A stretch of DNA of 64,000 bases from Chloroflexota bacterium. GTDB taxonomy: Bacteria > Chloroflexota > UBA11872 > VXOZ01. The notes under the pieces are model-generated. The model did no database searches, was not told where the DNA came from, and worked only from the letters and a program-made list of their open reading frames with translations. The position numbers and the translations under genes were made by a program. The stretch lies in contig OZ219802.1 in assembly GCA_964291655.2 (NCBI GenBank), positions 160,001 to 224,000 on the forward strand, read 5' to 3'. Within the stretch, counting starts at the first letter, position 1. The number at the start of each line of letters is the position of its first letter. Shown here in pieces: positions 10,120-58,285 of the stretch.

Positions 10120-10180
10120 CAACGATTTGCCTAGTGGACGAGTGGTCTCAAAATTCTGCGGTGGGTGAGAAGAGGGAAAG

Positions 10181-12742: not shown

Positions 12743-12757
12743 ATTAGGAACTGATTC

Positions 12758-13777: not shown

Positions 13778-13802
13778 ACCTAACTTCCGGAAAGGAGCCG
13801 CT

Positions 13803-14877: not shown

Positions 14878-14894
14878 GGAGCTAGTCGACCTAA

Positions 14895-15203
14895 ATGATC
14901 ATCCCGGCCTTGGAGTATTACTTGGTGCTGGGTGCGGCACTCTTTATCATCGGTCTGCTCGGTGTGCTGGTGCGGCGCAATTTACTGATTGTATTTATGT
15001 CGATTGAACTCATTTTATTGGGAGCAAACGTCACATTTGTTGGATTTGCCGTAGCTCTGAACAACATGCTGGGGCAAGCCTTCGTCATATTTTCCTTGAC
15101 CGTAGCCGCTGCTGAAGCGGCGGTTGGGCTCGCCACAATCGTGGCGTTGTCGCGCCACAGGGATTCGCTCAATGTTGATGAAATTGACACTCTCAAGGGG
15201 TAA
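14895..15203 (+). CDS. nuoK: NADH-quinone oxidoreductase subunit K
   Basis: RRNL, IEL, AAAEAAVGLA. Confidence 0.96.
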   Translation: MIIPALEYYLVLGAALFIIGLLGVLVRRNLLIVFMSIELILLGANVTFVGFAVALNNMLGQAFVIFSLTVAAAEAAVGLATIVALSRHRDSLNVDEIDTLKG

Positions 15204-15218
15204 AGGCGCGCAGAAGCA

Positions 15219-17126: not shown

Positions 17127-17136
17127 GGAAATCCCT

Positions 17137-18639: not shown

Positions 18640-18685
18640 CTCCTATTGGCCCGGTCTATCCGGGGCACGAGTGAGGACATAGCTA

Positions 18686-20161
18686 GTGCAAATAGAAGAC
18701 CTCATCAGCATCCTGCCCGAAATCATCATCACGGTGGTTGCCGCTTGCGTACTCATGGTGGACGCGTTCGGCGGCCGGCGGACTCATCGCGGCTTGTTGG
18801 GTCTGATTGTGGTTGGGAGTGTAGTCGCGATCCTCGTCACAGTCTTCGTGCGCGCTGACGGCGCAACTGCGTTTAGCGGTACCCTGCTGACAGATGGCTA
18901 CGCGGTATTCTTCAAAGTGCTCTTTCTCGCCATTGCCGCTCTCAGCATCGTGCTGGCGTTTGCGCAGTCGAAAGACGTTCCGTTTGCAGAGCTTGCGGCG
19001 CTCATTCTGTTCGCGACAGTCGGCATGCTTCTGCTGGGCGCAACGGGAGATCTGATCACGCTGTATCTTGGCATTGAGCTCACGTCTATTCCTGTCTACG
19101 TGCTCGTTGCCATCAAACGCGATCGATTCCGCGCGACGGAAGGCGCACTCAAGTATTTCCTGCTTGGCGCGTTTGCCTCCGGAGTTATGCTCTATGGTAT
19201 TGCCTGGCTCTTTGGCCTGACGGGCACAACGAATCTGGCGAATATGGCACTGTACGTGCAGAGCCAAGGTGCGGACAATCCCTGGTTCATGCTTGGACTC
19301 GGCCTCCTGCTTGCCGGTTTAGCGTTCAAAGTTGCTGCCGTTCCGTTCCACATGTGGACGCCTGACGCCTACCAAGGGGCGCCCACCCCGTCCACGGCAT
19401 TCCTGGCGGCCGGCGCCAAAATGGGCGCTATGGCGGGCCTTTTGCGGGTAGTTGTGCACGGACTCGGGCCCTGGCAGGACATGGTAGTGCCCATCGTGAT
19501 CGCGCTAGCCGTCGCAAGTATGATCGTCGGCAACTTTGTGGCCATCTGGCAACGAGACGTGAAGCGCTTGCTCGCGTACTCGTCGATTGCGCACACCGGA
19601 TATATGCTTGTTGCCATCGCGGTAGTGCATGCACAATCCGATGCTGGCGGACTCATGCGAGACGCCGTGGCGGCGATTCTGTTCTACGCCGCGGTGTATG
19701 CCTTGATGACGCTTGGTGCATTTGCCGTCACTTTCGCTGTGGAACGGCGCACCGGCGGCACGGAAATGGAGAACTTCCAAAACCTCGGTCGTTCTTCGCC
19801 TTTGCTGGCTGCTGCTATGGTGGTGTTCATGATCTCGCTTACCGGCATCCCACCGGCCGCGGGATTCTTTGGCAAGCTGTACTTGCTGCAAGTAGCCGTT
19901 AACGGCGGCTTGATTTGGGTGGCTGTCGTCCTTGTGCTGACAAGCACGGTATCGGCGTACTACTACCTGCGCGTTGTCGTTAACATGTACATGGTTGATG
20001 GGCAACCCCGCTTGCTTCCCGTTCCATCTTCCACCGCCATTGGCGCAGTGGTTGCCGTGGGCATCATTGGCACGCTTGTGCTCGGCATCTATCCCGCCGG
20101 AGCCATCGAGTGGGCGCAAGCCGCCTTTGAAGAGGTCGGCAAGCTGGCACTGTCACGCTAG
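18686..20161 (+). CDS. nuoN: NADH-quinone oxidoreductase subunit N
   Basis: EGALKYF, FKVAAVPFHMWTPDAYQGAP, KRLLAYSSIAH. Confidence 0.97.
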   Translation: MQIEDLISILPEIIITVVAACVLMVDAFGGRRTHRGLLGLIVVGSVVAILVTVFVRADGATAFSGTLLTDGYAVFFKVLFLAIAALSIVLAFAQSKDVPFAELAALILFATVGMLLLGATGDLITLYLGIELTSIPVYVLVAIKRDRFRATEGALKYFLLGAFASGVMLYGIAWLFGLTGTTNLANMALYVQSQGADNPWFMLGLGLLLAGLAFKVAAVPFHMWTPDAYQGAPTPSTAFLAAGAKMGAMAGLLRVVVHGLGPWQDMVVPIVIALAVASMIVGNFVAIWQRDVKRLLAYSSIAHTGYMLVAIAVVHAQSDAGGLMRDAVAAILFYAAVYALMTLGAFAVTFAVERRTGGTEMENFQNLGRSSPLLAAAMVVFMISLTGIPPAAGFFGKLYLLQVAVNGGLIWVAVVLVLTSTVSAYYYLRVVVNMYMVDGQPRLLPVPSSTAIGAVVAVGIIGTLVLGIYPAGAIEWAQAAFEEVGKLALSR

Positions 20162-20342: not shown

Positions 20343-20457
20343 AGACATCCATCTAGAGTGCCAGGTACATGCACGCATTTTCTCTTGACCTAGAAGGCTG
20401 ACTACCTTCCAGTACCGAGGCGAAACTTGCCTTCTATGCGTGAAAGCGGGGTGCATC

Positions 20458-21102
20458 GTGAATGCAGCCGAACCAGGGCAAATCATCATCCTGAACGGCG
20501 CGCCGCGATCGGGCAAGTCGAGCATCGTCCAGGTGGTCATGGACACATTTGATGGAGTGTGGATCAACCTTGGCGTAGATTGCTTCAAGCAGCAAACATC
20601 CCAGCGCTACAGTCCGGGCATTGGCCTTCGTCCCGGTGGAGTACTGTCAACAACGATCGAACCTCTCGTTCCGGTGCTGTATGCGGCCATGTACGAGTCT
20701 ATCGCTGCCCACAGCCGGCTGGGCGTAAACGTCGTTGTGGACGTTGGCCATCACGACGCGTATGCGGAGCCACGCGGCATCCTTTTTGCTAGCGCACGGC
20801 GTCTAAGCGGCTTGCCCGTCTTGTTTGTGGGAGTTCGTTGTCCTGTTGACGTGATCGTGGAGCGACGACAAAAGACGTGGGACCCAAGTCGGGGACTGGA
20901 CGAGCTCATTCAACGCTGGCAGCGTGAAGTCCACATTCCGGGCATCTATGACATTGAAGTCGATACTTCACGATGTTCTCCTCAGGAGTGTGCAGGTAAG
21001 ATTCGACAGTTCCTTGAAGAGCGTCCACGACTCTCGGCATTGGCTCAACTTGCCGAGATGCAACCGGACAACGGCAATTCAGTGTGTGAAGCAGCGAAGT
21101 AA
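20458..21102 (+). CDS. Chloramphenicol phosphotransferase (CPT)-like P-loop kinase
   Basis: IIILNGAPRSGKSS, VVVDVGHH, LFVGVRCP, YDIEVDTS; start uncertain (20440 or 20458). Confidence 0.85.
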   Translation: MNAAEPGQIIILNGAPRSGKSSIVQVVMDTFDGVWINLGVDCFKQQTSQRYSPGIGLRPGGVLSTTIEPLVPVLYAAMYESIAAHSRLGVNVVVDVGHHDAYAEPRGILFASARRLSGLPVLFVGVRCPVDVIVERRQKTWDPSRGLDELIQRWQREVHIPGIYDIEVDTSRCSPQECAGKIRQFLEERPRLSALAQLAEMQPDNGNSVCEAAK

Positions 21103-43798: not shown

Positions 43799-44105
43799 TA
43801 ATGGGACCTCTGGGTAGGCTCCGTCGCGCTCAGACCGCCGTGCCTGCTGCATCGCGGCATGTTCGATTATGCCACAGTCGAACTTCAGGGATAGGACAGC
43901 ATTCATGCCGAGGAGCGCTGCTCCTCAAGGCTGCCGGTGTCACAAGTCCCGTGCCGGGCCACACACTGCCCAATCTTGAGCCAGCGGCTACACAACAGAC
44001 GCGTAAGTAGGCTTCACGTGAGTAACTCGATGGCACGGGTAGAGTAGAATGGAAGACCAGAGAGCGCATCATGTTTTGAGACTTGCTTAGGGGAAGAGCA
44101 ACAAG

Positions 44106-45218
44106 ATGAGAGCATACGACGTCGCCGTCATCGGCGCCGGCATTATCGGGCTCATGATTGCGCGCGAATTACGCGCTGCCGGGCTGACAGTGGCGCTCCT
44201 AGAGCGGAGCGAGGTCGGCAAAGAGGCGTCGTGGGCGTCTGCAGGCGTGCTCATGAGCAGACCCTATCCCTACGAGAGCATTGTCGACTTTAGGCTGCGG
44301 GTGGAAGGCAGCGAGATGCTGCTGGCTTTGGGTCCCGTGCTTGCAGATGAGACTGGCATCGATATCGAGGCCGTGCGCCACCCTGCTCTCCATCTTGCCC
44401 TTACTGCGGAAGATGAAGCCAACATGCGGGCGCTACAACCGCAGTTAGAAGGGGCATGCCTTGGCTGTGAGTACATCAGCTCGGAGGAGGTTCAGGCACG
44501 CCAGCCAGAGATTACGCTGCCGGTGGCCCTCGGCATGGTGACGTCGTGCGCGAACATCGAGAACCGCCGCTTGCTGCGTGCCTTGGAAGTCGGCGCGCGC
44601 AAGGCGGGAGTCGACATTCTCACCGGCTGCGACGTCCGGGCACTCCAGGTTGAAGGCGGCAAGGTCACTGGCGTGCGCACGGCAAACCAAGACTTCCATG
44701 CCGGAGCGGTCGTAAATGCGGTGGGCAGTTGGGGCGGCACGCTGCAAGGAGCACCTGAGCACATTCCGGTGCAGCCGGAACGTGGGCAAATGCTCTCCCT
44801 CCACGCGGATACCGTTGCGCTCAGACTCCTCATCAACCTGCCGCAATTCATTATCATCCCGCGCAGGAGCGGACGTATCGTCCTTGGTGCGACTACCGAG
44901 AAGGTGGGCTACGACAGGCGCAACACGGCGGGAGCGATCCAGGGCATGCTTCACGCCGCCATCGAGGCTATCCCGGCGCTAGCGGCAGGGACGATCGAGG
45001 AACTGTGGTCGGGATTCCGTCCCTTCAGTCCCGATGGCTATCCCTTGGTCGGACCTTCCGCGCTCCCTGGCTATTACTACGCCGTCGGCCACCACAAGCT
45101 AGGCATTCAACAAGCGCCCATCACCGCTGAGATTGTCAAGGATCTCGTGACTACCGGCAAGACCAGCCGCCCCATTGACCATTGGATCCCCACCCGCTTT
45201 GGAACATCGGCGAGTTGA
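44106..45218 (+). CDS. FAD-dependent glycine oxidase (ThiO)/DAO family protein
   Basis: VIGAGIIG, ASWASAG, PERGQ, WSGFRP, GHHKLGI. Confidence 0.88.
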   Translation: MRAYDVAVIGAGIIGLMIARELRAAGLTVALLERSEVGKEASWASAGVLMSRPYPYESIVDFRLRVEGSEMLLALGPVLADETGIDIEAVRHPALHLALTAEDEANMRALQPQLEGACLGCEYISSEEVQARQPEITLPVALGMVTSCANIENRRLLRALEVGARKAGVDILTGCDVRALQVEGGKVTGVRTANQDFHAGAVVNAVGSWGGTLQGAPEHIPVQPERGQMLSLHADTVALRLLINLPQFIIIPRRSGRIVLGATTEKVGYDRRNTAGAIQGMLHAAIEAIPALAAGTIEELWSGFRPFSPDGYPLVGPSALPGYYYAVGHHKLGIQQAPITAEIVKDLVTTGKTSRPIDHWIPTRFGTSAS

Positions 45219-45232
45219 TCACAAGCGACAAT

Positions 45233-45676
45233 CTAGACCGTCGGCAGCGGATCAGCAGCAGCGAGCTCCAACCAGAACCTGACCGCCTGTTCTCGTTGTG
45301 CGGCAGTTCTTGCCACGCCCTGCCAGTCGCAGCGGGCAGAGTTGTTGACACCCGTCCCGCGCACGGCTAGGTGCACCGGCGACGCCTCCGCTAGACGCAA
45401 CCCCTTCTCCAGCACCTCTTCGACGGTGGCAACAGCGCTTGTTGGCGTGGGCGTTGGCGTCGGCGTAGCCGCAGGGGTGGAAGTTGGTGTCGGTGTTGCC
45501 GTGGCAGTTTGCCTCTCAGCCGCCGACGTCGTCTCTGCTTGCGCTCCGGCCCAAAAGACCATGCCAAACAGAACTGCCATCACCAGTGCGACGGCCAATC
45601 AACTGCCATACTGGGCAACATTACGAAACATTCTGTGCCGCAAGAAGCTTCTTGATCGCACAATGAACGGCGCCAT
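45233..45676 (-). pseudogene. Head gene B2: N-terminal fragment of a secreted protein with an internal stop, 3'-truncated
   Basis: ATG at 45676 (GGGAG RBS). MAPFIVRSRSFLRHRMFRNVAQYGS*LAVAL aligns codon-for-codon with the copy at 48180 (...GAGRLGVAL). TGA at 45599-45601; PT linker; VEEVLEKGLRLAEASPVHLAVRG domain cut off at 45233. Confidence 0.8.
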
Positions 45677-47093
45677 TATAGTCGCTCCCAGCTTTATCCC
45701 ATTCCTGCGAAACATCTACATCCCATTCGGTCGTTACATGCCAACTGTCACAGGATTGTCCGAGCAGCTGCGACGTCATCCATCGCGCTCGATCCTGTGA
45801 CGGGTTGGCTGGCACCAGGTTGCCGTCGGCATCTTGGCGTATCAAGTCTCGTCTGTCCGATCCGTCACGGGCAACCGTGAAGAGCGCGGGGGGCATCATG
45901 TCCCTGGTATAGTTGGTTCTGGGTGCAAAAAGGGTGAATACGGCGATGCGGGTGCCGTTGGGCGACCACGCAGCTATGTACGGTACGCCATCCTTCACAT
46001 TCAGTTCCGTTGACAACGCGGTCACCTCCCCATCCTCTAGGCTGACCACACACGCACCTTCTTCACAGGAGTAGAGTATCTGGGTGCCGTCCGGCGACCA
46101 CGCCACCGTGTGTACTTTGGACCTATAATTACTTTGGAATGCCCTGATGTTGTCGGTGATGGTAGTAATCTCTTTCAAGTCAGAGCCGTCGGCTGCCACC
46201 GTGAAGAGCGCTACCCTAACCTTTGCATACCCAACGTATTTTGCCACCACAAGTCTCTGCCCATTCGGCGACCATGAGGCCACGCTTACCACGTCCTCTG
46301 CTATCAGCGTCAATTCCGTCCCGTCTCTCCTCACCGTGTAGAGTATCTTCCGAAACGGTAAGAACGCCCCTTCGTATACTAGAAATGCCAACTTCTCGCC
46401 ATCCGGTGACCAAGCCGGCGGGAAGAGCGCAACGCCTCTGAGTCTTAGTATCGCGTCATCTTCCTCCCCCTTAAGCTGAACTTGTGATTGATTAAGTATT
46501 GGAAGCGTAGGAACCACGTGCCGCAAGTTCGACCCGTCAGCTGCCATCGTGTAGAGTCGCGCACCCAATTCATTTGAGTGGTTGTTAGGGCCCCTGACGA
46601 AGGCGATCTGGTTGCCGTCCGGCGACCACACCGGGTAATGGTCGAAGTAGCCCGAGATCGTGAGACGCTCTTGCCAGCCACCGTACAGATCGAATACGGC
46701 AATGTCATAATCGTACCCCGATGCTCCAACAAAAAACTCGCAGGCGGCGTTGACGATCCGGTACCCATCCGGCGAAATGTCAGCATGGAAACCGTACGGT
46801 AATACGTGCTTGGGTTCCAAGTCAACAAGCATGCGCGCCGCGGTTCCTTCAGTATTCACCTCCCACATTGTTGGGCCTCTCCCATCGAATATGAGATGGT
46901 TGCCATCTGGCGTCCACGCGAGAAAGTGCTTGTAATACACGCTAGGGTAATCGGACATCCGACGTCTACTACAACTGCTGCGATTCTCTTCCTGCTTTCC
47001 TAAATTTCCCTCAAAGGAATTCAATGTATCCTGCTGCGCGCAAGCGACAAGGCCCAAGGCGAGCACCAAGAGTATCGGCCACAATCGTCGCAC
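45621..47093 (-). CDS. PD40/TolB-like beta-propeller lipoprotein P6 (stop lost, C-terminal extension)
   Basis: LVAC lipobox; repeated WSPDG; RRDLIR..DGNL.PANP end. The expected TGA reads CGA at 45783-45785. Confidence 0.85.
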   Translation of the reverse strand: MRRLWPILLVLALGLVACAQQDTLNSFEGNLGKQEENRSSCSRRRMSDYPSVYYKHFLAWTPDGNHLIFDGRGPTMWEVNTEGTAARMLVDLEPKHVLPYGFHADISPDGYRIVNAACEFFVGASGYDYDIAVFDLYGGWQERLTISGYFDHYPVWSPDGNQIAFVRGPNNHSNELGARLYTMAADGSNLRHVVPTLPILNQSQVQLKGEEDDAILRLRGVALFPPAWSPDGEKLAFLVYEGAFLPFRKILYTVRRDGTELTLIAEDVVSVASWSPNGQRLVVAKYVGYAKVRVALFTVAADGSDLKEITTITDNIRAFQSNYRSKVHTVAWSPDGTQILYSCEEGACVVSLEDGEVTALSTELNVKDGVPYIAAWSPNGTRIAVFTLFAPRTNYTRDMMPPALFTVARDGSDRRDLIRQDADGNLVPANPSQDRARWMTSQLLGQSCDSWHVTTEWDVDVSQEWDKAGSDYNGAVHCAIKKLLAAQNVS

Positions 47094-47110
47094 GGCAACA
47101 CTCCTATTTC

Positions 47111-47623
47111 TCAGTCGACAAGTGTCTGATATTGCGCGTAGATTGCTAAGATGTCCATTGGATGCGGTGAACAGTCGTTCTCATCATGTAGATGGCTATA
47201 ATTCCCCGGAGCAATGTCGAAAGTTCCTGCGTCGTAGTTCATCACAGTCTCACTTAAGTGAGGATGCACAATTCCCAAAACATGTCCGGCCTCGTGAACC
47301 AAGTCTTCAGTAATCCCTTCTTCCGTCGTGCTGCACGTATTGAAGCTTACCGTTGGTATGCTCAATGTGCGTATCTCATACGCGCTGCGCCTAATCAAAA
47401 TGTCTCTTGTATAGAAGCACTTTGTAATGATGAATTCAAGAAACGTCTCCTCGTACTCTCTTTCGTTTGCGCACATTAGACCATCAACTCCACAAGCGCT
47501 AACGGCGACAAATCCGGAGAGTTGTAAAAAGTGGATGTTGACTTCGAGTGCCACGATGTGCGCAGCAGAATCGTCATACCTTACGATCTCGTTGTTCCTC
47601 AGATTTTCTTGGGGAAAATCCCC
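47111..47623 (-). pseudogene. Metzincin-type zinc peptidase C-terminal fragment, out of frame with head B1
   Basis: HEAGHVLGIVH (HExxHxxGxxH), TVMNY Met-turn, CSPHPMDILAIYAQYQT; frame is open upstream past 47620. Confidence 0.75.
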
Positions 47624-48180
47624 ATACGGTCGAAGGCCAGCGTGAGCGTGCTCGGCCCCGCCCCCAGCAGGTACTCGCTCGCCGTGTAATCCACGTAGCA
47701 GGTCAGGAAGAGATACTCAGTAGAAAGCCCGCCCCGCGCGATGGCGAGGAAGTTCGACTTGGCGGTCTCCTTGTACTCTGGATTCAGAGTGTCCAGCGTC
47801 ACCGTGAACAGAATCTCGAGAAACGACGCCGACGGCAGCGTGTCGGTGGACGACAGCCCCAGCCAGAAGCGGACGGCCGCCTCCCGTTGCGCCAACGTCC
47901 GCGCGATGCCCCGCCAGTCACAGCGGACAGAGTTGGTGACACCCGTGCCGCGCACGGCTAGGTGCACCGGGAAGGCCTCCGCTAAGCGCAGCCCCTTCTC
48001 CAGCACTTCTTCCACGGTGCCTGTTGGCGGTAGCCCATGAGCTTGGGCCCCAGCCCCGCACACCGCGCTCAGCAAGACTGCCAGCAGCAGTGCAACACCG
48101 AGCCGACCAGCGCCGGATACTACGCTCGTAATGGCGTTACGCTGCGCGAACGTGCAAAGGGGCATCAACCAAGAGGCCAT
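47599..48180 (-). pseudogene. Head gene B1: N-terminal part of a secreted protein
   Basis: Signal peptide ending AQA; VEEVLEKGLRLAEAFPVHLAVRG...CDWRGIART domain; ends 6 codons after a frame switch into the peptidase. Confidence 0.75.
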
Positions 48181-48239
48181 AGTAGCTTGTCCTAACTCTC
48201 TCCTAAATCTTGTGGGCCAACGTGCCACGCTCCACCACA

Positions 48240-49649
48240 TCACGGTGTCTCCTGTGGCGAGTTGGCTGGCGCAAGCTTGCCGTCGTCGTCCACTCGTACT
48301 AGCGCGCACAAGTCCGATCCGTCACGGTTCACGGTATAGATTTCAGGCGGTATGTTATCGTCCTGATTGCCTGGAACGTACAGAGCAATGCGGGAACCGT
48401 CCGGCGACCACGCCCCAACGCGCCATGCTTTGTCAAGGCGACTTCCAAGTTCAACACGGCGCACACTGCTGCCGTCTCGCCGGACAATGAAGAAGTGACT
48501 GTCAGAGCCAACCAGCAGTTCCAACCCGTCCGGCGACCACGAGACGTGAGAGACTTTCCAGCTCATCCCTTGCGATTCCAGAACCTGTGTAAGGTCAGTA
48601 CTGTCAATACGCACCGTGTAGACGCCAACGGGCTCGCCCTCCTCATCGGCCATCACAAAGGCCAGAAACTCTCCGTCCGGTGACCACGCCGGTAAGACCG
48701 GTGTCCAGAATGACATGAAAATCATCTGCAGATGAGGTAGGTATGTAGAGACCGGTCCGGCGACCCGCGTCCACTCACTCCCGTCGGCCCGGATTACATA
48801 AAGAAAACTCCCCTGATAGGATGCCAAGAGCGCCAAGTATTTCCCGTCCGGCGACCACAGTGGCGGCACATTCCCAACGGCGACGTGGTAGGTTTTCTCT
48901 TTTAATGTAGGTGTTATTGTTGCTGCGCCCTGCTCCAGATCGGACCCGTCCGCCTCAATGGCAACATAGAATTCGCTTTCCTCTCTTAGTGCAGGTGTCG
49001 TTAACGCTACCCCCTGTCGTACATCGGATCCATCCACCGCCATCGTATAAATCTCACCCCACCCAAACGGTCCACTAGCTGACGAGGAGAAGGCGATGCG
49101 CTTCCCATCAGGAGACCATACTGGATAGTCGTCAAAACTATCATTCCGCGTAAGCCGTTGCTTCCTAGTGCCATCCAGGTTGATGACGGCAATCTCGTAA
49201 CCATAGTGGTTCTCGCGTTTCGGATCTACATGCGGGCCTTCCGGTCGAAACTCGCATGACGTATAGACCACCCTCGTGCCGTCCGGCGAGACATCAAAGT
49301 AAAAGCCGTACGGAAAGTTAGACCGAGGAATTCGATTCTCAATCGGATATCGAGGATCTGCGTCCACGAGCGTGCGCAGTTGGGTTCCTTCACGATCGAC
49401 CACCTGTATTGTCCCTACGTAATCGAATAGCAGATACGTGCCGTCCGGCGTCCAATGAATAACCTGCTCGAACACGTACTGGCTGTACCCTTCAAGCATT
49501 GGACCGCAAGGGCCGTCCGACTCTCTAATAAGCCCAAACTTCCCTTTCGTAACCTCATCAGTAGTCTCACAGCCAACAAGACCTAGTGCCAACGCCAACA
49601 AAGCTATCCCCAGAAACATGAGTTGCACTCGATGCACAAGTGTGTGCAT
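48240..49649 (-). CDS. PD40/TolB-like beta-propeller lipoprotein P5
   Basis: LVGC lipobox; WTPDG/WSPDG repeats; DDDGKLAPANSPQETP end. Confidence 0.88.
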   Translation of the reverse strand: MHTLVHRVQLMFLGIALLALALGLVGCETTDEVTKGKFGLIRESDGPCGPMLEGYSQYVFEQVIHWTPDGTYLLFDYVGTIQVVDREGTQLRTLVDADPRYPIENRIPRSNFPYGFYFDVSPDGTRVVYTSCEFRPEGPHVDPKRENHYGYEIAVINLDGTRKQRLTRNDSFDDYPVWSPDGKRIAFSSSASGPFGWGEIYTMAVDGSDVRQGVALTTPALREESEFYVAIEADGSDLEQGAATITPTLKEKTYHVAVGNVPPLWSPDGKYLALLASYQGSFLYVIRADGSEWTRVAGPVSTYLPHLQMIFMSFWTPVLPAWSPDGEFLAFVMADEEGEPVGVYTVRIDSTDLTQVLESQGMSWKVSHVSWSPDGLELLVGSDSHFFIVRRDGSSVRRVELGSRLDKAWRVGAWSPDGSRIALYVPGNQDDNIPPEIYTVNRDGSDLCALVRVDDDGKLAPANSPQETP

Positions 49650-49664
49650 TGTCAATCCTATAAG

Positions 49665-49946
49665 CTACTGCGTCTGATAGAGCGCGAAGATCGCCATGAT
49701 GTCCAGCGGGTGCGGCGAACACTTGGGCAACCTTCCACCATAGCTCATGATTGCGCTATGTATATCCTCATTCGGATGGTGTACTTCTTGGCCCATGTCA
49801 TCTATGCCATCACGAATTCCAAAGTCATGACCCAATTCATGCACCAGCCAACCATACGGGATGTTATGTGTGTCTCTAGTGTTGATGTACGTGTTTACAA
49901 CCGCATCTCGTTTCAGGGCAGTATGTGGCATCCCAAAGTTAATCAC
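49665..49946 (-). CDS. Small metzincin-like peptidase tip M4
   Basis: HELGHDFG...HHP, AIMSY, CSPHPLDIMAIFALYQT; GTG start overlaps the upstream TGA. Confidence 0.7.
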   Translation of the reverse strand: MINFGMPHTALKRDAVVNTYINTRDTHNIPYGWLVHELGHDFGIRDGIDDMGQEVHHPNEDIHSAIMSYGGRLPKCSPHPLDIMAIFALYQTQ

Positions 49947-51376
49947 TGGCCCTCCTCAGGCGGGTTGGCTGGTGCCAGATGCCCATTGGCGTCCAGAGTT
50001 ATCAGGTCGCGCCGGTCTGTGCCGTCTCGGGCAATTGTGTAAAGCTGAGGCGGTATGTTGCGAGAGGCATCGCCTGGCATGTACAGAGCGACTCTTGTAC
50101 CGTCCGGCGACCACGCCACAACGATCCCTGTACTATAATCGTCGTCAGTAAACGGAGCCTTTTGGTCCACCGTGCGCAGACCACTGCCGTTCAGTTGGAC
50201 GAAGTGAAGCCCTTGCTGGGAAGCGACCAGTATCTCTGCTCCATCCGGAGACCATGAGAGATGGGATGCTTCCCATTCTGGCCCCTGCGGTTTCAGCAAT
50301 TGCTCTAAATCGGAGCCGTCGGGACGGACGGTGTAGACACCGGCAGACTTGCCTTCCTCATTAGCCATCACAAATGCAAGGAACTCGCTGTCCGGCGACC
50401 ACGACGGCAATACCAATGGGATGAAGATTTTCTGGTAGAGTTGCGGTAGACTCGGCACACCGATCGTCTCCCCGATCCGCGTCATCTCTGAACCATCGGC
50501 TCGAACCGAGTACAGAATGTGACGAAACGGTAAGTGCTGGCCTTCACTCACCAGGAACACCAAGCGCTCTCCATCCGGAGACCACACCGGCGGCGAGAAA
50601 GCTAGTGCTCCCAGCCATGCCTCTTTGGAATCCTTGTCCTTTTCCCCACGTGCCGTGTAGAACGCGTTCGTTCGCCAGTAGTAGAATCCTTCTGTATCTG
50701 TGCCTTCCCTAATCAACGTGGAGGCGGCCAAGCGCGTGTCTGATTCATCTGCTGCCATAATGTAGAGTTCCTTAAGATGAACACTGCCTCGACCGCGGGG
50801 ATTCGCAATGAATGCGATTCTACTGCCGTCAGGAGACCACACCGGGTAGTGGTCTAGATGCTCATTTTCCGTGAGCCTCAGTTTCCCCGTGCCGTCCAAA
50901 TTGATTGTGGCAATCTCGTAACGAAATCTCTTACGTTCAAATTCATACTCCGGATCTATGTCTATACTTTCCGTTGAGAACTCGCAGGTGGAGTAGACGA
51001 TGCGTGTGCCGTCCGGTGATACGTCGGCGTGGAAACTGAACCGTGCTGCGTGTCTAGGATTAGCGTCTACGAGCATATGGACCCAACGGCCCTCGCTATC
51101 TGCTGCCCAGATTCCTTGCCCTCTTAAAAGACCATACTGATCCGGGAGGAATGCTACTGGCACATAGTTGAACACTAGCTGGTTGCCGTCCGGTGTCCAC
51201 TCCAGGAAAAGTTCCTGATGCCCAGAGTCAAAAGGATCAAAGGATGGACCGCACTGATAATCGTACTCGGCAACAACTGACTGACCATCTTCACTGCAAC
51301 CGGCAGTTGCTAGAAGAAGCACCACCGCCAATAGCCCTGCCGTCGCCGACCACATCCGTCTCATGCCGACCCACAT
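49943..51376 (-). CDS. PD40/TolB-like beta-propeller lipoprotein P4
   Basis: TAGC lipobox; GGGAGG RBS; WSPDG repeats. Confidence 0.88.
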   Translation of the reverse strand: MWVGMRRMWSATAGLLAVVLLLATAGCSEDGQSVVAEYDYQCGPSFDPFDSGHQELFLEWTPDGNQLVFNYVPVAFLPDQYGLLRGQGIWAADSEGRWVHMLVDANPRHAARFSFHADVSPDGTRIVYSTCEFSTESIDIDPEYEFERKRFRYEIATINLDGTGKLRLTENEHLDHYPVWSPDGSRIAFIANPRGRGSVHLKELYIMAADESDTRLAASTLIREGTDTEGFYYWRTNAFYTARGEKDKDSKEAWLGALAFSPPVWSPDGERLVFLVSEGQHLPFRHILYSVRADGSEMTRIGETIGVPSLPQLYQKIFIPLVLPSWSPDSEFLAFVMANEEGKSAGVYTVRPDGSDLEQLLKPQGPEWEASHLSWSPDGAEILVASQQGLHFVQLNGSGLRTVDQKAPFTDDDYSTGIVVAWSPDGTRVALYMPGDASRNIPPQLYTIARDGTDRRDLITLDANGHLAPANPPEEGQ

Positions 51377-51392
51377 GTTCTACCTCCCGTGT

Positions 51393-51668
51393 CTACCGAG
51401 TCTGATAGAGCGCAAATATCGCCAAGATGTCCGCCGGGTGAGGGGAACAGTCGGGATCATCATGCAAGACTGTCTCGTCTGGCTGGGGTCTACCTTCATA
51501 ACTCATAACGGATCCCGCGATTGTGGGGTGGTGAATAAGCTGCCCGGCTCCATCATTACCAGTTCGAACCCCCAGAGCATGACCCGCTTCATGCACCAAC
51601 GAGCTGTAGGAATAGTTGTAATCATCATTCGTATTGGGGCACGGGTTGAAGGAGCCAAAATTCATCAC
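51393..51668 (-). CDS. Small metzincin-like peptidase tip M3
   Basis: FNPCPNTN, HEAGHALG...HHP, SVMSY, CSPHP. Confidence 0.7.
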   Translation of the reverse strand: MMNFGSFNPCPNTNDDYNYSYSSLVHEAGHALGVRTGNDGAGQLIHHPTIAGSVMSYEGRPQPDETVLHDDPDCSPHPADILAIFALYQTR

Positions 51669-52906
51669 GACCCCTCCTGTGGCGGGTTGGCGGGCGCTAA
51701 GTTGCCGTCATCGTCCAAGCGAATCAGGTCGCGGCGGTCCGTGCCGTCACGGGCAATTGTGTAAAGCTGAGGTGGCTCACGGTTGGAGAATCTCCTGCTG
51801 ACGAACACTGCAATCCGCGAGCCGTCCGGCGACCAGGCTACTTGGCGCCAAGCCTCCGGGTGCCCCGCAAACTCGAAACTGCGCAAACCTGTGCCGTCCG
51901 CTTGAACAATTAGAGCCTGCTCTCCGGAAACGATGAGTAACTCTGAACCGTCCGGAGACAGCGCGATCTGTGTGACGTTCCATTCTGCTGATTGTGGCGC
52001 CAGCACCTGTTGCATATCCGTACCGTCAGCCCGTACCGTGTAGATCCCGATTGCCTTATCTTTTGCGCCGTCTTCTTCCCATTCGCCTGATTCAGCATCG
52101 ATTTCGCTCGCCCGCGCAAACGTGAGAAACTCCCCGTCCGGCGACCACACCGGCGGGACAACCGCCTCGGCAATGCGCGTCAACTCCGTCCCATCTGTGC
52201 GCACTGTATACAATACGCGGCGATAGCCTACCCTCTTCACGCCTTCGCCGACCAGAAACGCCAAGCGTTCTCCATCCGGTGACCACACCGGCGGCGCTAA
52301 GTGAATTCCGCCCACTTCCTTCGTCTCGTTCGAACTCTCCCGCAGCGTGGATGCCATTACCAACCCCTGCTTGTTCGATTCGACCGCTGACATCGTGTAG
52401 AGCACACTACTGTAACCTTCACTAATGAATGCAATGCGGCTGCCGTCGGGCGACCATGACGGCACACTATTTGTGCCGGAGTCCTTTGTGAGCCGTTGTT
52501 GCCCGGTACCGTCCAAATTGATGACGGCGATCTCATATTCGTGCACGGGCTTCCCCGCCCTCAGCACGGTAAACTCGCACGTGGCATAGACGACCTGAGT
52601 GCTATCCGGCGACACGTCCGCGTAAAAGCCAAATATTGCACCTAGGGGGTCGGGGGTTGCAAGCTCCCACAACTGGGTTCCCTGCGCGTCCACCGCGTAA
52701 ACTGCTGATTGGTTATCGAATACGAGATGGGAGCTGTCCGGCGTCCAGTGGAGGAAATGGTGGGGGTAAAACGCGCTATAGTTGCGAGAATGAACCGAGC
52801 AAAGGCTTTGTCCATCAGAGACTCCATCCGAAGGCAATGACCCGCATCCGGTAAGACCCAAAGTCAGTGCCATTAGACCAAGTAATGTCAAGATACGCCG
52901 TGGCAT
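51665..52906 (-). CDS. PD40/TolB-like beta-propeller lipoprotein P3
   Basis: LTGC lipobox; WSPDG repeats; conserved C-terminus. Confidence 0.88.
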   Translation of the reverse strand: MPRRILTLLGLMALTLGLTGCGSLPSDGVSDGQSLCSVHSRNYSAFYPHHFLHWTPDSSHLVFDNQSAVYAVDAQGTQLWELATPDPLGAIFGFYADVSPDSTQVVYATCEFTVLRAGKPVHEYEIAVINLDGTGQQRLTKDSGTNSVPSWSPDGSRIAFISEGYSSVLYTMSAVESNKQGLVMASTLRESSNETKEVGGIHLAPPVWSPDGERLAFLVGEGVKRVGYRRVLYTVRTDGTELTRIAEAVVPPVWSPDGEFLTFARASEIDAESGEWEEDGAKDKAIGIYTVRADGTDMQQVLAPQSAEWNVTQIALSPDGSELLIVSGEQALIVQADGTGLRSFEFAGHPEAWRQVAWSPDGSRIAVFVSRRFSNREPPQLYTIARDGTDRRDLIRLDDDGNLAPANPPQEGS

Positions 52907-52921
52907 AGTCCTTGTTCTCCA

Positions 52922-53188
52922 CTAGGGTCCTGTTTGATAGATTGTATAGATCGCCATGATGTCCAATGGGTGCGGGGAGCAGTCCGGTTCAACTACGCCG
53001 GTTACCGTGGAGTAATTCATGATCGAGTCAGTAATGGAAGGATGACCTTGAAGTCTGGAGTCTGCCGCCTTCTTAGATGCTGCACGAATCCCAAGTGCAT
53101 GGCCCGCTTCATGCACTAGAGAGCTATAGGGATTGTTGTAATTGTCATTCGTATTGGGGCACGGGTTGAAGGAGCTATAATTCATCAC
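52922..53188 (-). CDS. Small metzincin-like peptidase tip M2
   Basis: FNPCPNTN, HEAGHALG...GHP, SIMNY, CSPHP. Confidence 0.7.
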   Translation of the reverse strand: MMNYSSFNPCPNTNDNYNNPYSSLVHEAGHALGIRAASKKAADSRLQGHPSITDSIMNYSTVTGVVEPDCSPHPLDIMAIYTIYQTGP

Positions 53189-54513
53189 GACCCCTCTTGT
53201 GGCGGGTTGGCGGGCGCTAAGTTGCCGTCATCGTCCAGGCGTATCAGGTCGCGGCGGTCCGCGCCGTCAGGAGTAACAGTATAGAGTTGCGGTGGGGGGA
53301 CATCGCCTGGTGTAAAGATTGCGACACGCGTGCCGTCAGGAGACCACGCCGCAGCGTGGGGGGTGATCCATGCGACTTCACTTTCGATCAACACTACCTC
53401 TCCGCTCGCCCAGTCGATGATACATGCAGCACCATCCTCACAGGAATAGAGTATCTGCGTCCCATCCGGCGACCACGCGAGGACGGGTACCGAACCATTG
53501 AAGGGAAGTCCCCAGCGAAGCCAAGCCAGACTGATAATGGTAGTGATGAACTGCAGGTCGGAACCGTCTGCCGCCAGGGTGTAAAGCCCTACATCATCCC
53601 CGGCAATCTTCGCCACCGCCAGCCGTTGCCCGTCCGGCGACCAGGCGGGCACACTAGCCACTTCCTCCGCAAGTAAGGTCATCTCTGAGCCGTCGGCTTT
53701 CACCAAATACAAGTCCCTCATGAAGATACTGAAGTGATCGGTATTAACTTGGAAGGCTAAGCGCTCCCCATCTGGCGACCAGACCGGCGGCGCCAGGGTC
53801 ATCCCATGCTTGCCGGGCGGCACCACACGGTGCACGTCCGAGCCGTCCGCCGCCATGGTGTAGAGCGCCATTCCCTCTGGTGCATAGTAGTACTCCCGCG
53901 TGGAGAGGAAGGCGACACGGCTGCCGTCCGGCGACCACACGGGATAGTGGTCGAGGCGTGGATTCCTGGTGAGCCGACGCTGCCCTGTGCCGTCTATACC
54001 GATGATGGCCACTTCGAAGTTGAAATCTATCTGCTCTGGATTCTGTTGATGTGGCGGGAAGGGATACTCACAGCTTGCATAGACAAGCTGTGTGCCGTCC
54101 GGCGATACGTCAGCATGGTGACCGTACTGGGACTCGCGACTGGGATTAGCGTCGACGAGCAACTCCAAGCGGCTGCCTGCTGAGTCCACCAGCCAGATAC
54201 CGGTGAAGATGTTCCAGTATCTCTGACTTCCTCCTGCAAAGTAGTTGAATACCAAGTGCGCGCCATCCGGCGTCCAGGCGAGAGAGATCTTACCTTCACC
54301 AAGGTTGATCGAAAACCCCAACGGACCACAGGGATAGCTGCCAATGTCGGATATGAAGTCTTCCGGGGTAGGCGAGGGCGCCACCGTTGGCGTACTGATC
54401 ATATCCGCCTCCTTCGTTGACCGCATAGCCCCCGGCTGCTGCTGACAGCCGACAAGCCACAGTACCAGCACCGCTAAGAGCCTCAATTGTGCCAACCTGC
54501 CTCGTAGCATCAT
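53185..54513 (-). CDS. PD40/TolB-like beta-propeller lipoprotein P2
   Basis: ATG at 54513 (AAAGGGA RBS); LVGC lipobox; WSPDG repeats. Confidence 0.88.
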   Translation of the reverse strand: MMLRGRLAQLRLLAVLVLWLVGCQQQPGAMRSTKEADMISTPTVAPSPTPEDFISDIGSYPCGPLGFSINLGEGKISLAWTPDGAHLVFNYFAGGSQRYWNIFTGIWLVDSAGSRLELLVDANPSRESQYGHHADVSPDGTQLVYASCEYPFPPHQQNPEQIDFNFEVAIIGIDGTGQRRLTRNPRLDHYPVWSPDGSRVAFLSTREYYYAPEGMALYTMAADGSDVHRVVPPGKHGMTLAPPVWSPDGERLAFQVNTDHFSIFMRDLYLVKADGSEMTLLAEEVASVPAWSPDGQRLAVAKIAGDDVGLYTLAADGSDLQFITTIISLAWLRWGLPFNGSVPVLAWSPDGTQILYSCEDGAACIIDWASGEVVLIESEVAWITPHAAAWSPDGTRVAIFTPGDVPPPQLYTVTPDGADRRDLIRLDDDGNLAPANPPQEGS

Positions 54514-54529
54514 GGTTGCATCCCTTTCG

Positions 54530-54799
54530 TTAGGATCCGATCTGATAAATTGCAAAGATCGCCATAATGTCCAACGGATGCGGGGAACAATCCTTCTCAT
54601 TGACCAGCATAAGCTTCCGATTGTAATTCATAACGGAGTCAGCGATTGAGGGATGACCCTGGAATTCGGGGTCTGCCGCCTTCTTAGAAGCTGCACGAAG
54701 CCCGATGGCATGACCCGCTTCATGCACCAACGAGCTCTTGGGATAGTTGTAATCATCATTCGTATTGGGGCACGGGTTGAAGGAGCTATAACTCATCAC
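54530..54799 (-). CDS. Small metzincin-like peptidase tip M1
   Basis: FNPCPNTN, HEAGHAIG...GHP, SVMNY, CSPHP. Confidence 0.7.
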   Translation of the reverse strand: MMSYSSFNPCPNTNDDYNYPKSSLVHEAGHAIGLRAASKKAADPEFQGHPSIADSVMNYNRKLMLVNEKDCSPHPLDIMAIFAIYQIGS

Positions 54800-56106
54800 G
54801 GCCCCTCCTGTGGCGGGTTCGCTGGCACTAAGTTGCCGTCATCGTCCAGGCGTATCAGGTCGCGCCGGTCAGTACCGTCCGGGGCCAAGGTGTAGAGATG
54901 TGGTTCCGGATCAGGCCTGTAGATTGCAATCCGGGAGCCGTCCGGCGACCACGCCGCAGCGTACGGAAAGAACCAAATAAATGGACTATCTTCCACCAAT
55001 GCCGTTACCTCTCCGCTCGCCAAGTCAATAAGGCATACCCCATGCTTGCAGGAGTAAACCAGTCGCGTGCCGTCCGGCGACCAATTCACAGTGGGTATTG
55101 TTTCCGAGAAGGGAGGCCCAGCCTTCATAACTTCCCGCTCGAAGATGTTCGTGACGAGTTGGTGGTCGGTACCATCAGCCGCTAGGGTGAAGAGTCCCAC
55201 GAAGTCGTCAGTATACTTTGCTACCGCCAGCCGCGTGCCATCCGGCGACCAAGCGGGCACACTGACCACCTCTTTCGCCAGCAGAGTCATCTCCGTGCCG
55301 TCGACCTTCACCGCGTACAAGTCCCTCTGGAGGTAGTAGGGGTCTGCGGTATTCACTTGGAATGCCAACCGTTCTCCGTCCGCCGACCACACCGGCGGCG
55401 CCAGGGTCAACCCATGCGGGTGGGGCTGTGTCACGCGCTGTTTTTCTGAGCCATCCCCCGCCATGACACTGAGCCTCAGATACTCATAATGGGGCTCAAG
55501 GAAGGCGATGCGGTTACCGTCGGGAGACCAGACCGGATAGTGGTCGAGGCTCCGGTTCTCCGTGAGCCGCTGCTGCCTCGAGCCTTCTAGAGTGACAACG
55601 ACCACTTCATAGTCAAAATCCTCCCGCTCCGGAACTTGCTTTCTGTAGGAGAATTCGCAGCTTGCATACACAAGCTGGGTACCGTCCGGCGAAATGTCTG
55701 CGTGGTTTCCGAACATGGAACCCTGACCGGGGTTAGCGTCAACGATCAGGATTACGTGGCTGCCCGCAGCATCCACCCGCCAGAAAGCCGTATGATACGG
55801 AATTTCCCCCGACCCGTAGTAGTCCGCTGGCCGGTAATTGAACACCAAATGCGCTCCATCCAGTGTCCAAGCGAGCACGAGCCTATCCATACCAAGGTTA
55901 TAATCAATCCAACCGAACGGTCCGCATGAATAGCTCCTCTCGACATCGAAAACCCTTTCACCTGGGGTCGGCGAGGGTACCACCGTTGGCGTACTCGTCG
56001 GTCCCACAATTACTGGCCGAAGGTTGGCAGGCTGCTGCTGGCAGCCAACGAGAACCAGTGTTAGCACTGCCAAGACTCCGAGACGCGGCAGCGATGTGCG
56101 TGCCAT
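54796..56106 (-). CDS. PD40/TolB-like beta-propeller lipoprotein P1
   Basis: ATG at 56106 (MARTSLPRLG...LVGC lipobox); WSPDG repeats. Confidence 0.88.
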   Translation of the reverse strand: MARTSLPRLGVLAVLTLVLVGCQQQPANLRPVIVGPTSTPTVVPSPTPGERVFDVERSYSCGPFGWIDYNLGMDRLVLAWTLDGAHLVFNYRPADYYGSGEIPYHTAFWRVDAAGSHVILIVDANPGQGSMFGNHADISPDGTQLVYASCEFSYRKQVPEREDFDYEVVVVTLEGSRQQRLTENRSLDHYPVWSPDGNRIAFLEPHYEYLRLSVMAGDGSEKQRVTQPHPHGLTLAPPVWSADGERLAFQVNTADPYYLQRDLYAVKVDGTEMTLLAKEVVSVPAWSPDGTRLAVAKYTDDFVGLFTLAADGTDHQLVTNIFEREVMKAGPPFSETIPTVNWSPDGTRLVYSCKHGVCLIDLASGEVTALVEDSPFIWFFPYAAAWSPDGSRIAIYRPDPEPHLYTLAPDGTDRRDLIRLDDDGNLVPANPPQEGP

Positions 56107-56122
56107 TATCGCAGAACTCTCT

Positions 56123-56571
56123 TTAAGGTATGGACTGATACAGTGCAGTGGTTGCCATGATGTCAAATGGGGTGGGAGAGCACTTATATTTTCTAAAGCC
56201 CTCTTTAATAACCGTGGATTCCTTGATTCGTGGGTGATGGCGCTCTTGACCTATGCCATCACTTCCGCCGCCAACGGTATGGCCGCCGTCGCCGTCTCAT
56301 CCACCGAAGATCCCCGCGTCTCCACCCGGAAGTTCACCAGGATGTCCGCGCTCGGCGCGCTGCTTGCCGTGATGGTGAAGATCGCCTCCTCGCCCTGCGC
56401 CACCGTCGCCTGCGACGACGCGATCGTCAGCGACGGCCCGCTCGACTGCGCCTGGGTCGCTACCGCATACACCAGGCTCAACAACACCACCAGCCCAAAC
56501 CCTATCCTAGACCGCCGAGCACCGGGTAATATGCGTTCAATCGAGATCCAAAGCGAAATTGTGCGGAGCAA
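56123..56571 (-). pseudogene. Head gene A: Calx-beta/Ig-like N-terminus fused out of frame to a peptidase tail
   Basis: Signal peptide plus SLTIA..VAQGEEAIFTITAS. The -1 frame (56296-56123) reads GGSDGIGQERHHP...CSPTPFDIMATTALYQSIP*, homologous to the M tips and absent from the ORF track. Confidence 0.75.
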
Positions 56572-56751
56572 CGCGCGAAAACGAGCCGTAGCGCTTTGCC
56601 CTAACCCTCAATTCGGTTCAGTGACTGTGCCTGCCGCTTCCTGTCCAGGCCAGCACCTGTCGTCCTCTTCACCGCACTGCTTGGTTCAGCCTGACAGGTC
56701 GATACTGATAGTTTCTTACTTGTCCAATACATACATGTTGCTAGTTACGTG

Positions 56752-56781
56752 ACTCTATCATTGGTCTTATTGTATTGTCAA
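56752..56781 (-). promoter_or_regulatory. Sigma70-type promoter for the cassette array
   Basis: TTGACA (56781-56776), 18-bp spacer, TGaTAGAGT extended -10 (56757-56752). Confidence 0.6.
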
Positions 56782-56971: not shown

Positions 56972-57003
56972 CATGACGGCCGTGACAATACACGGCCGTC
57001 ATG
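56972..57003 (-). terminator. Terminator after the DUF3179 gene
   Basis: Perfect 13-bp inverted repeat CATGACGGCCGTG-acaata-CACGGCCGTCATG. Confidence 0.7.
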
Positions 57004-57037: not shown

Positions 57038-58285
57038 TTAGTCGGGCAAGCCAAAAACGCGGGTGTCGGGCTTGAAGACAGCCCAAGCAAACCAGAAGTG
57101 GTTGCCGTTTACGATGGACTGCAGTTGCTTGCCGGTCAGCGGTCCTGCGATCGCGCGACCGAGAACGTTCCACTGCGATTGGGTTTCCGTATCCAAGATT
57201 TCACCGTCGTCATTCACTTGAAACTTCAGCGTTGCGCCGTCGACCACCGGCGCGAAAACACCGGCGGCGCCAATGTCTGCACCTGAGAATGGAGATATCG
57301 CGCCGGGTTGGTGAATTACCACAATCGGCTCGCCGCCGACGGAATCTTCCACTACCCGCTGCTCTGCCAGCACGTTGAAGGGATAGGCGGCATCTTCGCC
57401 ATTCAGCGACACCGTGACCACTCGTTCCATGGCGGGCAGGCGACCGTCGACCTCCTCGAAGAAGAGGAAGGGCGATGAAGAAATGTCGTCATAGCCGGGA
57501 TACGGGTTTCTGCCATACGATCGAGGATAGCCGGTTTCACGCGAGAGCACCTGACCTTCAGGATGCGTGCTGCGGAAGTCTGCGAAAGAAACTATCGACG
57601 CCGGCACCGTGGTTAGTTTCTTGCCGGTAAGTTCACCCACGATGGCCGTTCCCGTAATCTGCTGCCACCAACTCTCCGTCTGACGGTCGTACATGATCAA
57701 GTCGCTGTAGCGCAAATTGCCGCTAACACCAAAGTCATACGTGGTGCCATCCAGGCGCCGGTCGAAAGCAATCGCGGTATTGCAGAGCGGGCAGAACGTC
57801 ACCGTGACCGGCATCCCGCCGATAGTGTCGTTCACAATCTCGTGCCAAACCAGAATTTCAATCGGATAGGCCTTCGCCTCTCCGTTGACTTCAACCACTA
57901 CAACGGGTTTGCGATCATCAAGGTATGCCGCGGCTTCATCGGACGTGATGAAGGCCGGATCGTCAATTGGGGGGATGCCATCTTTGCCGGGACCGCCGGA
58001 GCTGATTTCGCTGAGCGGCACGCTATGCTTGGAAAAGTCAGTCTTCCACCCAAATGTGGAGAACTGGAGATTAGCGGGAAGCTCCGGTGAGGGAGAGGGT
58101 TGCACAGCCTCTGCTTCAGGAGTAACGGCGGGCTCGACTTCCTCTACGATCGTGTCCTCCGGCATCTGTCCGCAGGCCACTGCGGCTACGATAGCGACCG
58201 ATGCGGTGCCGGCCGCTAGCAGAATGTTGCGTCGACTCAAGAGGTTGCGCGGGGTCCTGTTCACTGGCTGACTTCTCCTATTCAC
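57038..58285 (-). CDS. DUF3179 family Tat lipoprotein
   Basis: SRRNILL + VAC; GGPGKDGIPPIDDP, WHEIVND, TFCPLCN, YDRQTESWWQQ, HFWFAW. Confidence 0.88.
   Translation of the reverse strand: MNRRSQPVNRTPRNLLSRRNILLAAGTASVAIVAAVACGQMPEDTIVEEVEPAVTPEAEAVQPSPSPELPANLQFSTFGWKTDFSKHSVPLSEISSGGPGKDGIPPIDDPAFITSDEAAAYLDDRKPVVVVEVNGEAKAYPIEILVWHEIVNDTIGGMPVTVTFCPLCNTAIAFDRRLDGTTYDFGVSGNLRYSDLIMYDRQTESWWQQITGTAIVGELTGKKLTTVPASIVSFADFRSTHPEGQVLSRETGYPRSYGRNPYPGYDDISSSPFLFFEEVDGRLPAMERVVTVSLNGEDAAYPFNVLAEQRVVEDSVGGEPIVVIHQPGAISPFSGADIGAAGVFAPVVDGATLKFQVNDDGEILDTETQSQWNVLGRAIAGPLTGKQLQSIVNGNHFWFAWAVFKPDTRVFGLPD

Follow-up and report, generated by a model that had tools for sequence, protein, structure and literature searches.

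Two eroded copies of a predicted metzincin–propeller operon leave an array of intact orphan PD40 lipoproteins in a Chloroflexota genome

A minus-strand array at positions 45233-56781 of a 64,000-nucleotide stretch of contig OZ219802.1 (positions 160,001 to 224,000; Chloroflexota bacterium, assembly GCA_964291655.2), hereafter the window, encodes six PD40 propeller lipoproteins, each with the C-terminal piece of a peptidase upstream. Comparison with 41 relatives and 40 retrieved regions defined three gene families in the order A-P-(tip-P)n-B, in which A is a stalked peptidase with a predicted metzincin fold, P is the PD40 propeller lipoprotein, often extended by leucine-rich repeats (LRRs), and B is a large secreted protein; the peptidase pieces are termed tips. 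Given this order in relatives, the array therefore represents two eroded operon copies, one consisting of an A remnant, P1, four tip-P units and a B remnant, deletion-fused to a second consisting of an A remnant, P6 and a B remnant. All six P genes are intact, while both A and both B genes are destroyed. The explanation that we favour, and to which we give about an even chance, is that P acts as cognate inhibitor of, or immunity partner to, a secreted enzyme resembling matrix metalloproteinases (MMPs) and has been collected as orphans like the members of esaG arrays.

The six P open reading frames (ORFs) match PD40 with E-values of 1e-18 to 1e-28, and all have a lipobox cysteine at residue 18-27 and 5-6 WSPD-type repeats, in agreement with an earlier note on this DNA that had described six such lipoproteins. 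Their pairwise identity of 39-59% indicates that they are not recent duplicates, as that note had also supposed, and the 3’ ends of P1 to P5 are spaced by 1611, 1520, 1722 and 1703 nt, matching its central repeat of ~1.5-1.7 kb. The claim that a peptidase end precedes every P held for all six, M2-M6 containing HE(A/L)GH, another H farther on, the Met-turn-like (S/A)(V/I)M and CSPHPxDIxAI, although M1 is degenerate and has lost its HExGH zinc motif. Likewise, the heads of the large secreted proteins are all broken as stated, but only H1 starts a peptidase gene, H2 and H3 being starts of the non-peptidase B. Short-read contigs reproduced the region (one spans 44000-51641 with 0 differences, and the remainder is tiled), indicating that the gene breaks are not assembly errors. 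Contig joints were not used, having sides of 20-35 letters typical of other PD40 genes; read depth over the P2 and P3 units was lower in one sample and inconsistent between runs. No recombinase, such as would adjoin an integron-like cassette array, was found in the array flanks or in 25 ORFs scanned elsewhere in the window.

A proteins are ~700-1700 residues long and comprise Fn3 repeats, a conserved ~210-residue stalk and a C-terminal domain of ~300 residues, preceded in intact copies by a signal peptide. The zinc-site residues H233, E234, G236, H237, G240 and H254 are invariant in 48 A sequences. Among 236 A homologues HExGH is kept in 233 and the peptidase domain is C-terminal in 235, with the third His displaced by an insert in most; the Met-turn position is Met in the majority and Val in some. 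The model of the catalytic domain (predicted local distance difference test score, pLDDT, 76; predicted template modelling score 0.80) aligned with serralysin 1akl (Z 10.6, root-mean-square deviation (rmsd) 4.1, 170 aligned) and with MMP-2 and MMP-9 (Z 9.9), and ESM Atlas placed A near matrixin clusters at 0.92-0.94. Foldseek gave no match for A at E<=0.001, the weak rows being mostly MMPs, and a PDB sequence search returned weak rows only, the proteasome ones being judged chance. We read A as a secreted zinc endopeptidase of predicted metzincin fold, matrixin-like and carried on a stalk. It would have the fold of matrixins (M10) and serralysin, to which it adds a helical insert and one of 5-30+ residues before the third His; that insert and one following the Met-turn vary between sequences, and the family falls into 753 clusters at 50% identity. 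We found a good family model neither for the A catalytic domain nor for the B head. In-frame P-A and B-A fusions also occur (P0057; P0212, P0076; L021:15340-17097; L and G numbers denote loci and genomes), probably arising from deletions, and one in-frame fusion gives a short whole-domain peptidase the signal peptide of B.

TolB and the propellers of S9/DPP peptidases are among the closest solved relatives of P. The segments that vary among P proteins follow the IAF strand and precede each PxWSPDG, positions that we take to be loops of one propeller face. We counted 129 complete P ORFs and 34 partial ones, many of which are simply divergent; about a dozen P genes in relatives are broken into pieces. 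Comparisons between orphan P genes gave dN/dS of 0.21-0.47 in 23 of 24 pairs and 0.69 in one, a sequence-level signal that points to purifying selection on the orphans. One 1991-residue ORF (L140:2918-8893) carries a P-type propeller in mid-protein, after other repeat-like segments.

The third gene was absent from the earlier note, as were P genes without any peptidase. B combines LRR, Fn3 and cadherin domains with a conserved 300-residue head and no peptidase, and 31 of 62 B ORFs are cut short. The best 11 structural matches of the head model (pLDDT 81) are all NTR-fold chains, with Z from 10.1 to 6.2 compared with 6.0 for other oligonucleotide/oligosaccharide-binding (OB) folds. The laminin-binding NtA domain of agrin ranks first (Z 10.1, rmsd 3.2, 109 aligned), and other matches include the PCOLCE1 NTR domain, C345C and N-TIMP-3 (Z 7.5). 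The B head is thus predicted to share the NTR/TIMP fold of these domains; Foldseek gave it no match at E<=0.001, a PDB sequence search for B was blank, and the ESM Atlas value of 0.78 was taken as a lead only. TIMPs use an N-terminal Cys to bind zinc. By contrast, B has no such N-terminal Cys ridge: its mature N-termini are without Cys, and the invariant cysteines of the head, C35 and C109, are internal.

Full-length peptidases do exist in relatives, as the earlier note had anticipated, and P is the next feature after 62 of 69 whole-domain A ends and 79 of 82 partial ones with enough flank, in loci that were picked around A, P or B matches and in relatives that are not independent. The expected co-variation was also seen. 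For 49 A-P pairs the Spearman coefficient was 0.34 with the nearest neighbour shared in 21/49, compared with 0.27 and 18/47 for stalk and P, and 0.35 and 16/47 for stalk and catalytic domain, both within A. A tip tends to resemble the peptidase of the closest P: for 15 of 27 HExGH-bearing tips, the A belonging to the closest P ranked among the first 5 of 49 (median rank 4; some of the 49 A rows are halves of frameshifted genes), and the window pairs M1-P1, M4-P4 and M6-P6 each point to one operon. In some loci an unrelated lipoprotein, DUF6174 or RCC1-like, takes the place of P behind A. At L078:7251-10601 and L118:718-9521, DUF6174 lipoproteins are fused to the B head behind A, L118 having three tandem copies, all preceded by an A tail and the first two closing with the final residues of A; at L116:8798-9895 an RCC1-like lipoprotein sits between A and B. 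An RCC1-like repeat protein was also seen directly upstream of a P at L141:3586-5583.

A was found in 23 of 401 genomes of the phylum and 4 of 217 genera, all in the window’s class, and a GTDB pattern scan (best 80 of 225 hits) gave 70 loci, all titled as Chloroflexota, Dehalococcoidia or Tepidiformaceae metagenome-assembled genomes. Among 84 genomes of the class, in which P counts are lower bounds, 33 have A pieces and 43 have neither gene. A never occurred without P (33/33 genomes) but P stood alone in 8/84, and we counted this asymmetry in favour of P as a protective partner. The source genome itself (G000; 97.6% complete, 2 contigs) contains no intact A or B: tblastn found no peptidase or head sequence outside the window and a stalk profile search gave no match, extending to the whole genome the earlier claim that the strain lacks a full-length effector. 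Outside the array it has one lone P (C2:1988336-1989802) and, at C2:2606672-2610865, a tandem pair of P-LRR genes at which no peptidase tip was found and whose first member is split between two ORFs in the LRR part. No stalk was found in G000, G011 or G015, which carry 4-8 P genes. In G040, at least six solo P-LRR genes are scattered between unrelated genes (L131-L136).

The window site lies between a DUF3179 gene and a DAO-family gene. Among 17 congeners it is occupied in 5, whose contents differ, and in 12 the gap is <0.6 kb (empty or nearly so). In the closest congener (L151, G008:C50:14500-15500; L152) the site has only ~0.6 kb of repeat-like DNA, so the 11.8-kb island has been lost or gained since the split. 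P genes are also found at hot spots that hold one to six P without A, many with a decayed tip. One lies directly behind the stop of an ABC permease gene, with 1 P in G000 (the lone P above, its spacer looking like a decayed tip) and 3-6 P in L023, L027, L028 and L036; a second, behind another core gene (L052, L053, L060, L148), holds one or two P and tip remnants.

The earlier note had suggested that the array may be a toxin-tip/immunity arsenal, a reading that the structure of the tips does not support. Most partial A ends start at profile positions 65-278 of 295, and tips comprise the last 20-200 residues of the ~300-residue catalytic domain; many contain stops, and 48 of 84 partial ends are without HExGH. 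A few orphans keep the whole domain, L041:4854-6722 being one. As judged from sequence, then, tips are neither ready toxins nor whole toxin domains. A dN/dS of 0.2-0.4 in tips was rejected as proof that they are functional, because it may date from full-length ancestors.

The left ends of the tips are non-random, with junctions clustering at the Met-turn and HExGHALG codons. Of 28 short tips, 16 have Met-turn-like codons that overlap the stop of P; at P-B junctions the count is 3 of 47, and at other P ends 1 of 46 (Fisher p 2e-6, overstated since rows are related). Loops past these codons differ widely, implying several independent junctions. That TGATG at P-tip junctions might be the normal coupling of P to B was considered and rejected, an overlapping ATG occurring in only 6 of 47 P-B junctions. 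Longer tips show a P end, then a B start and then a deletion joint into A. M2-M4 have a junction repeat of 211-274 bp in common, and M4 switches sequence after HEAGHAL. The clearest exchange is at L041:4854-6722, a whole-domain A without signal peptide: its DNA is 77-80% identical to three relatives up to the HExGHALG codons, and beyond them tip and P match another pair of relatives instead, at 70-75% identity. This chimera indicates that exchange of tip plus P does happen, at conserved active-site codons; three further discordant pairs were found among 47 proteins.

If P is indeed the cognate partner of A, the locus would be an eroded A-P-B copy now working as a collection of orphan partner lipoproteins. 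P would bind and block its cognate A at the cell surface, as potempins or immunity lipoproteins do, and A would attack surface proteins of related cells or a matrix on which the cell itself depends. Arrays of orphan P would confer cross-protection, having been collected because they protect against the enzymes of relatives, and the source genome would be a protected non-producer. The tips would mainly be hitch-hiking DNA carrying the translation start of P and short homology for recombination, long tips occasionally supplying a peptidase gene with both new active-site loops and a new P. A more elaborate and only tentative version is one of extracellular proteolytic conflict, a toxin-immunity arms race in which the specificity of a polymorphic MMP-like enzyme would be varied by exchanging just its active-site loops, at the HExGHALG and Met-turn codons, together with the cognate propeller inhibitor, the conserved TIMP-fold adhesin B would serve as co-factor or target, and up to ~20 inhibitors would be stockpiled behind housekeeping genes.

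Several observations weigh against this explanation. Co-variation, and the rule that P follows a tip, are also expected from linkage alone. In partial correlations with P, the catalytic domain reaches 0.23 and the stalk 0.18, so function and linkage are not separable by this comparison, and the loops following HExGH correlate only weakly with P (0.13-0.17). M2 and P2 are not a cognate pair (rank 42/49). Part of the dN/dS signal in P may predate orphaning. The Pfam matches of A include no delivery or self-cleavage domain, and a signal-like start was found in 27 of 64 whole-domain A ORFs by a rough signal-peptide test. G040, from another family, has 10 P genes with no A found; there are P-B and solo P loci without peptidase trace, and the LRRs of many P are common with B. 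The NTR/TIMP-like head predicted for B would be an alternative regulator of A. For the L025 pair, a complex prediction of the catalytic domain and the cognate P (48-row alignments, without controls) scored 0.00, which is not evidence either way.

Part of this pattern raises the possibility, which we hold to be real though clearly behind the partner explanation, that A-P-B is a module for adhesion to and remodelling of a host matrix. A would clip matrix or shed B, the NTR head of B would bind matrix or regulate A, P would be a ligand-binding receptor, and P arrays would reflect receptor diversification with tips as passive DNA. The resemblance of the B head to agrin NtA, PCOLCE1 NTR, C345C and N-TIMP-3 and of A to serralysin and MMPs fits this, as does the absence of A from P-B and solo P-LRR loci. 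The LRR, Fn3 and cadherin domains of B and many P belong to types enriched in sponge symbionts, according to the available part of PMC8163846, and by analogy with that repertoire the lineage may be host-associated. However, such a module leaves unexplained the divergence of A into so many clusters beside a conserved B head (median 59% against 34%), the frequent A tails on orphan P, and the broken B genes beside mostly whole P.

It is unlikely that P is instead a positive subunit that tethers A or gates its substrates like a split tricorn or S9 propeller-peptidase, orphan P then capturing the peptidases of neighbours. The solved relatives of P and the in-frame fusion P0057 would suit such a role, but P0057, a single case among 236 proteins, has the look of a deletion product, A already has its own long stalk, and gating fits poorly with DUF6174 or RCC1-like lipoproteins replacing P. 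Least probable of all is neutral decay of tandem operon copies with P surviving by chance or recency, for although deletions visibly joined B starts to A ends and about a dozen P are in pieces among relatives, the window lost both A and both B but none of six P too divergent for recent duplicates, orphan P dN/dS stays below 0.5 in all but one pair, and several hot spots without A, located behind housekeeping genes, have received P insertions.

The features of the array are collected in Table 1. The promoter proposed in the earlier note exists as a site, and both of its boxes are largely conserved in two relatives with the window site occupied, but consensus alone does not place it above chance, the scan giving 4 sites of this grade compared with 6.6 in shuffles. 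P6 has a C-terminal extension of ~55 residues (window 45621-45800) past the stops of other P, overlying the start region of the B remnant. A 13-bp hairpin after the DUF3179 gene (window 56972-57003) is shared with the filled site of G012 and was not present in the empty sites compared. Elsewhere, the window contains an ordinary NADH dehydrogenase (complex I) cluster after a Rex-like regulator (8914-20161), and Pfam matches to a VanW-like protein (4268-6091) and a chloramphenicol phosphotransferase-like protein (20440-21102).

Table 1. Features of the array and its flanks, in window coordinates
Feature	Position	Strand	Remarks
Flank: FAD-dependent oxidoreductase (DAO family), core gene	44106..45218	+	
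H3: 5’ remnant of second B gene, running into chromosomal flank near 45247	45233..45598	-	B-head match
P6: PD40 lipoprotein, 490 aa	45621..47093	-	best match L048 operon
M6: last ~180 codons of second A gene, out-of-frame joint to H2	47111..47645	-	best match A of L048, as for P6
H2: 5’ half of B (signal peptide and half of predicted NTR/TIMP-like head), deletion cut near 47620	47599..48240	-	80-91% to B heads of relatives
P5: PD40 lipoprotein, 469 aa	48240..49649	-	PD40 match, lipobox
M5: 93-codon tip without ATG	49665..49946	-	Reprolysin_4 E 0.001
P4: PD40 lipoprotein, 477 aa	49943..51376	-	best cognate match L025, same operon as for M4
M4: 90-codon mosaic tip	51393..51665	-	5’ part common with M2/M3, switch after HEAGHAL; 72% to A of L025
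P3: PD40 lipoprotein, 413 aa	51665..52906	-	79% and 69% to orphan P at two G005 loci
M3: 87-codon peptidase tip	52922..53185	-	75% identity to M2
P2: PD40 lipoprotein, 442 aa	53185..54513	-	75% to cognate P of L032; dN/dS ~0.4
M2: 88-codon peptidase tip, ATG overlapping P1 stop	54530..54796	-	
Three copies of 211-274 bp P-end/tip-start repeat	51565-51838, 53085-53295, 54696-54954 (span 51565..54954)	-	82-87% identical
P1: PD40 propeller lipoprotein, 436 aa	54796..56106	-	57% to cognate P of L032
M1: degenerate A 3’ end, zinc motif lost	56123..56296	-	54% to A of L032
H1: 5’ remnant of A (signal peptide and first Ig-like segment), remainder deleted	56251..56571	-	matches N-termini of full-length A
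Candidate sigma70-like promoter for operon	56752..56781	-	10/12, TG
Flank: DUF3179 protein, core gene	57038..58285	-	

Among described systems, the closest in organization are the esaG and tipC immunity arrays of type VII secretion systems, which the available text of PMC9484751 describes as strings of non-identical partners, present also in toxin-less strains, that expand and shrink by recombination between conserved blocks spanning gene end and spacer, as P arrays appear to do. Unlike them, the partner here is a PD40 lipoprotein with a putative immunity role, the enzyme is a Sec-type predicted metzincin, and the spacer is the enzyme’s own 3’ end. With Rhs, CDI and Maf systems, A-P-B shares a large secreted repeat protein (Fn3 repeats in A) with a C-terminal enzyme, and orphan 3’ fragments downstream, each with a partner gene, from which recombination can install a new tip and partner (parts available of PMC3967940 and PMC3482391). 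By contrast, there is one enzyme family, tips are partial domains, and Rhs, filament and HINT domains are absent from the Pfam matches. Interchange of unrelated toxin domains was not found, 96 of 96 stalk matches in 84 genomes adjoining the same peptidase by eye (the pre-catalytic stalk was searched, not the more N-terminal repeats separately), and orphan modules did not have the complete toxin domain of those systems. Since these two defining features of polymorphic toxins are absent, A-P-B should not be filed as such a system. The Tox-MPTase1-5 entries, as given in the available portion of PMC3482391, have Rhs repeats and no immunity protein.

Secreted peptidase genes adjoining lipoprotein genes are also known: in Tannerella, KLIKK peptidases, MMP-like ones included, are genetically linked to membrane-anchored lipoprotein potempins (PMC9890683, in part), and Listeria Mtz is a metzincin with the TIMP-like lipoprotein Tim as its substrate (PMC8235301, in part). 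A and P resemble these pairs, their co-transcription being predicted from adjacency. However, potempins and Tim are beta-barrel/OB or TIMP-like proteins of 100-130 aa, whereas P is a propeller of 6-7 repeats collected as orphans, and the TIMP-like fold that Mtz/Tim has on the lipoprotein partner is here predicted on the third protein, B. We found no paper on an A-P-B operon in the literature searched, which covered few subscription journals and no supplements.

The Fn3, LRR, cadherin and propeller proteins of uncultured Chloroflexota are generally interpreted as serving host interaction. Even if the adhesion explanation is right, a bacterial operon joining an MMP-like enzyme, a propeller and a predicted NTR/TIMP-fold domain is unannotated. 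If P inhibits A, it would represent a new scaffold for metzincin inhibition, with hundreds of natural cognate pairs for the study of specificity, and the arrays would be evidence of protease-based competition in uncultured Chloroflexota.

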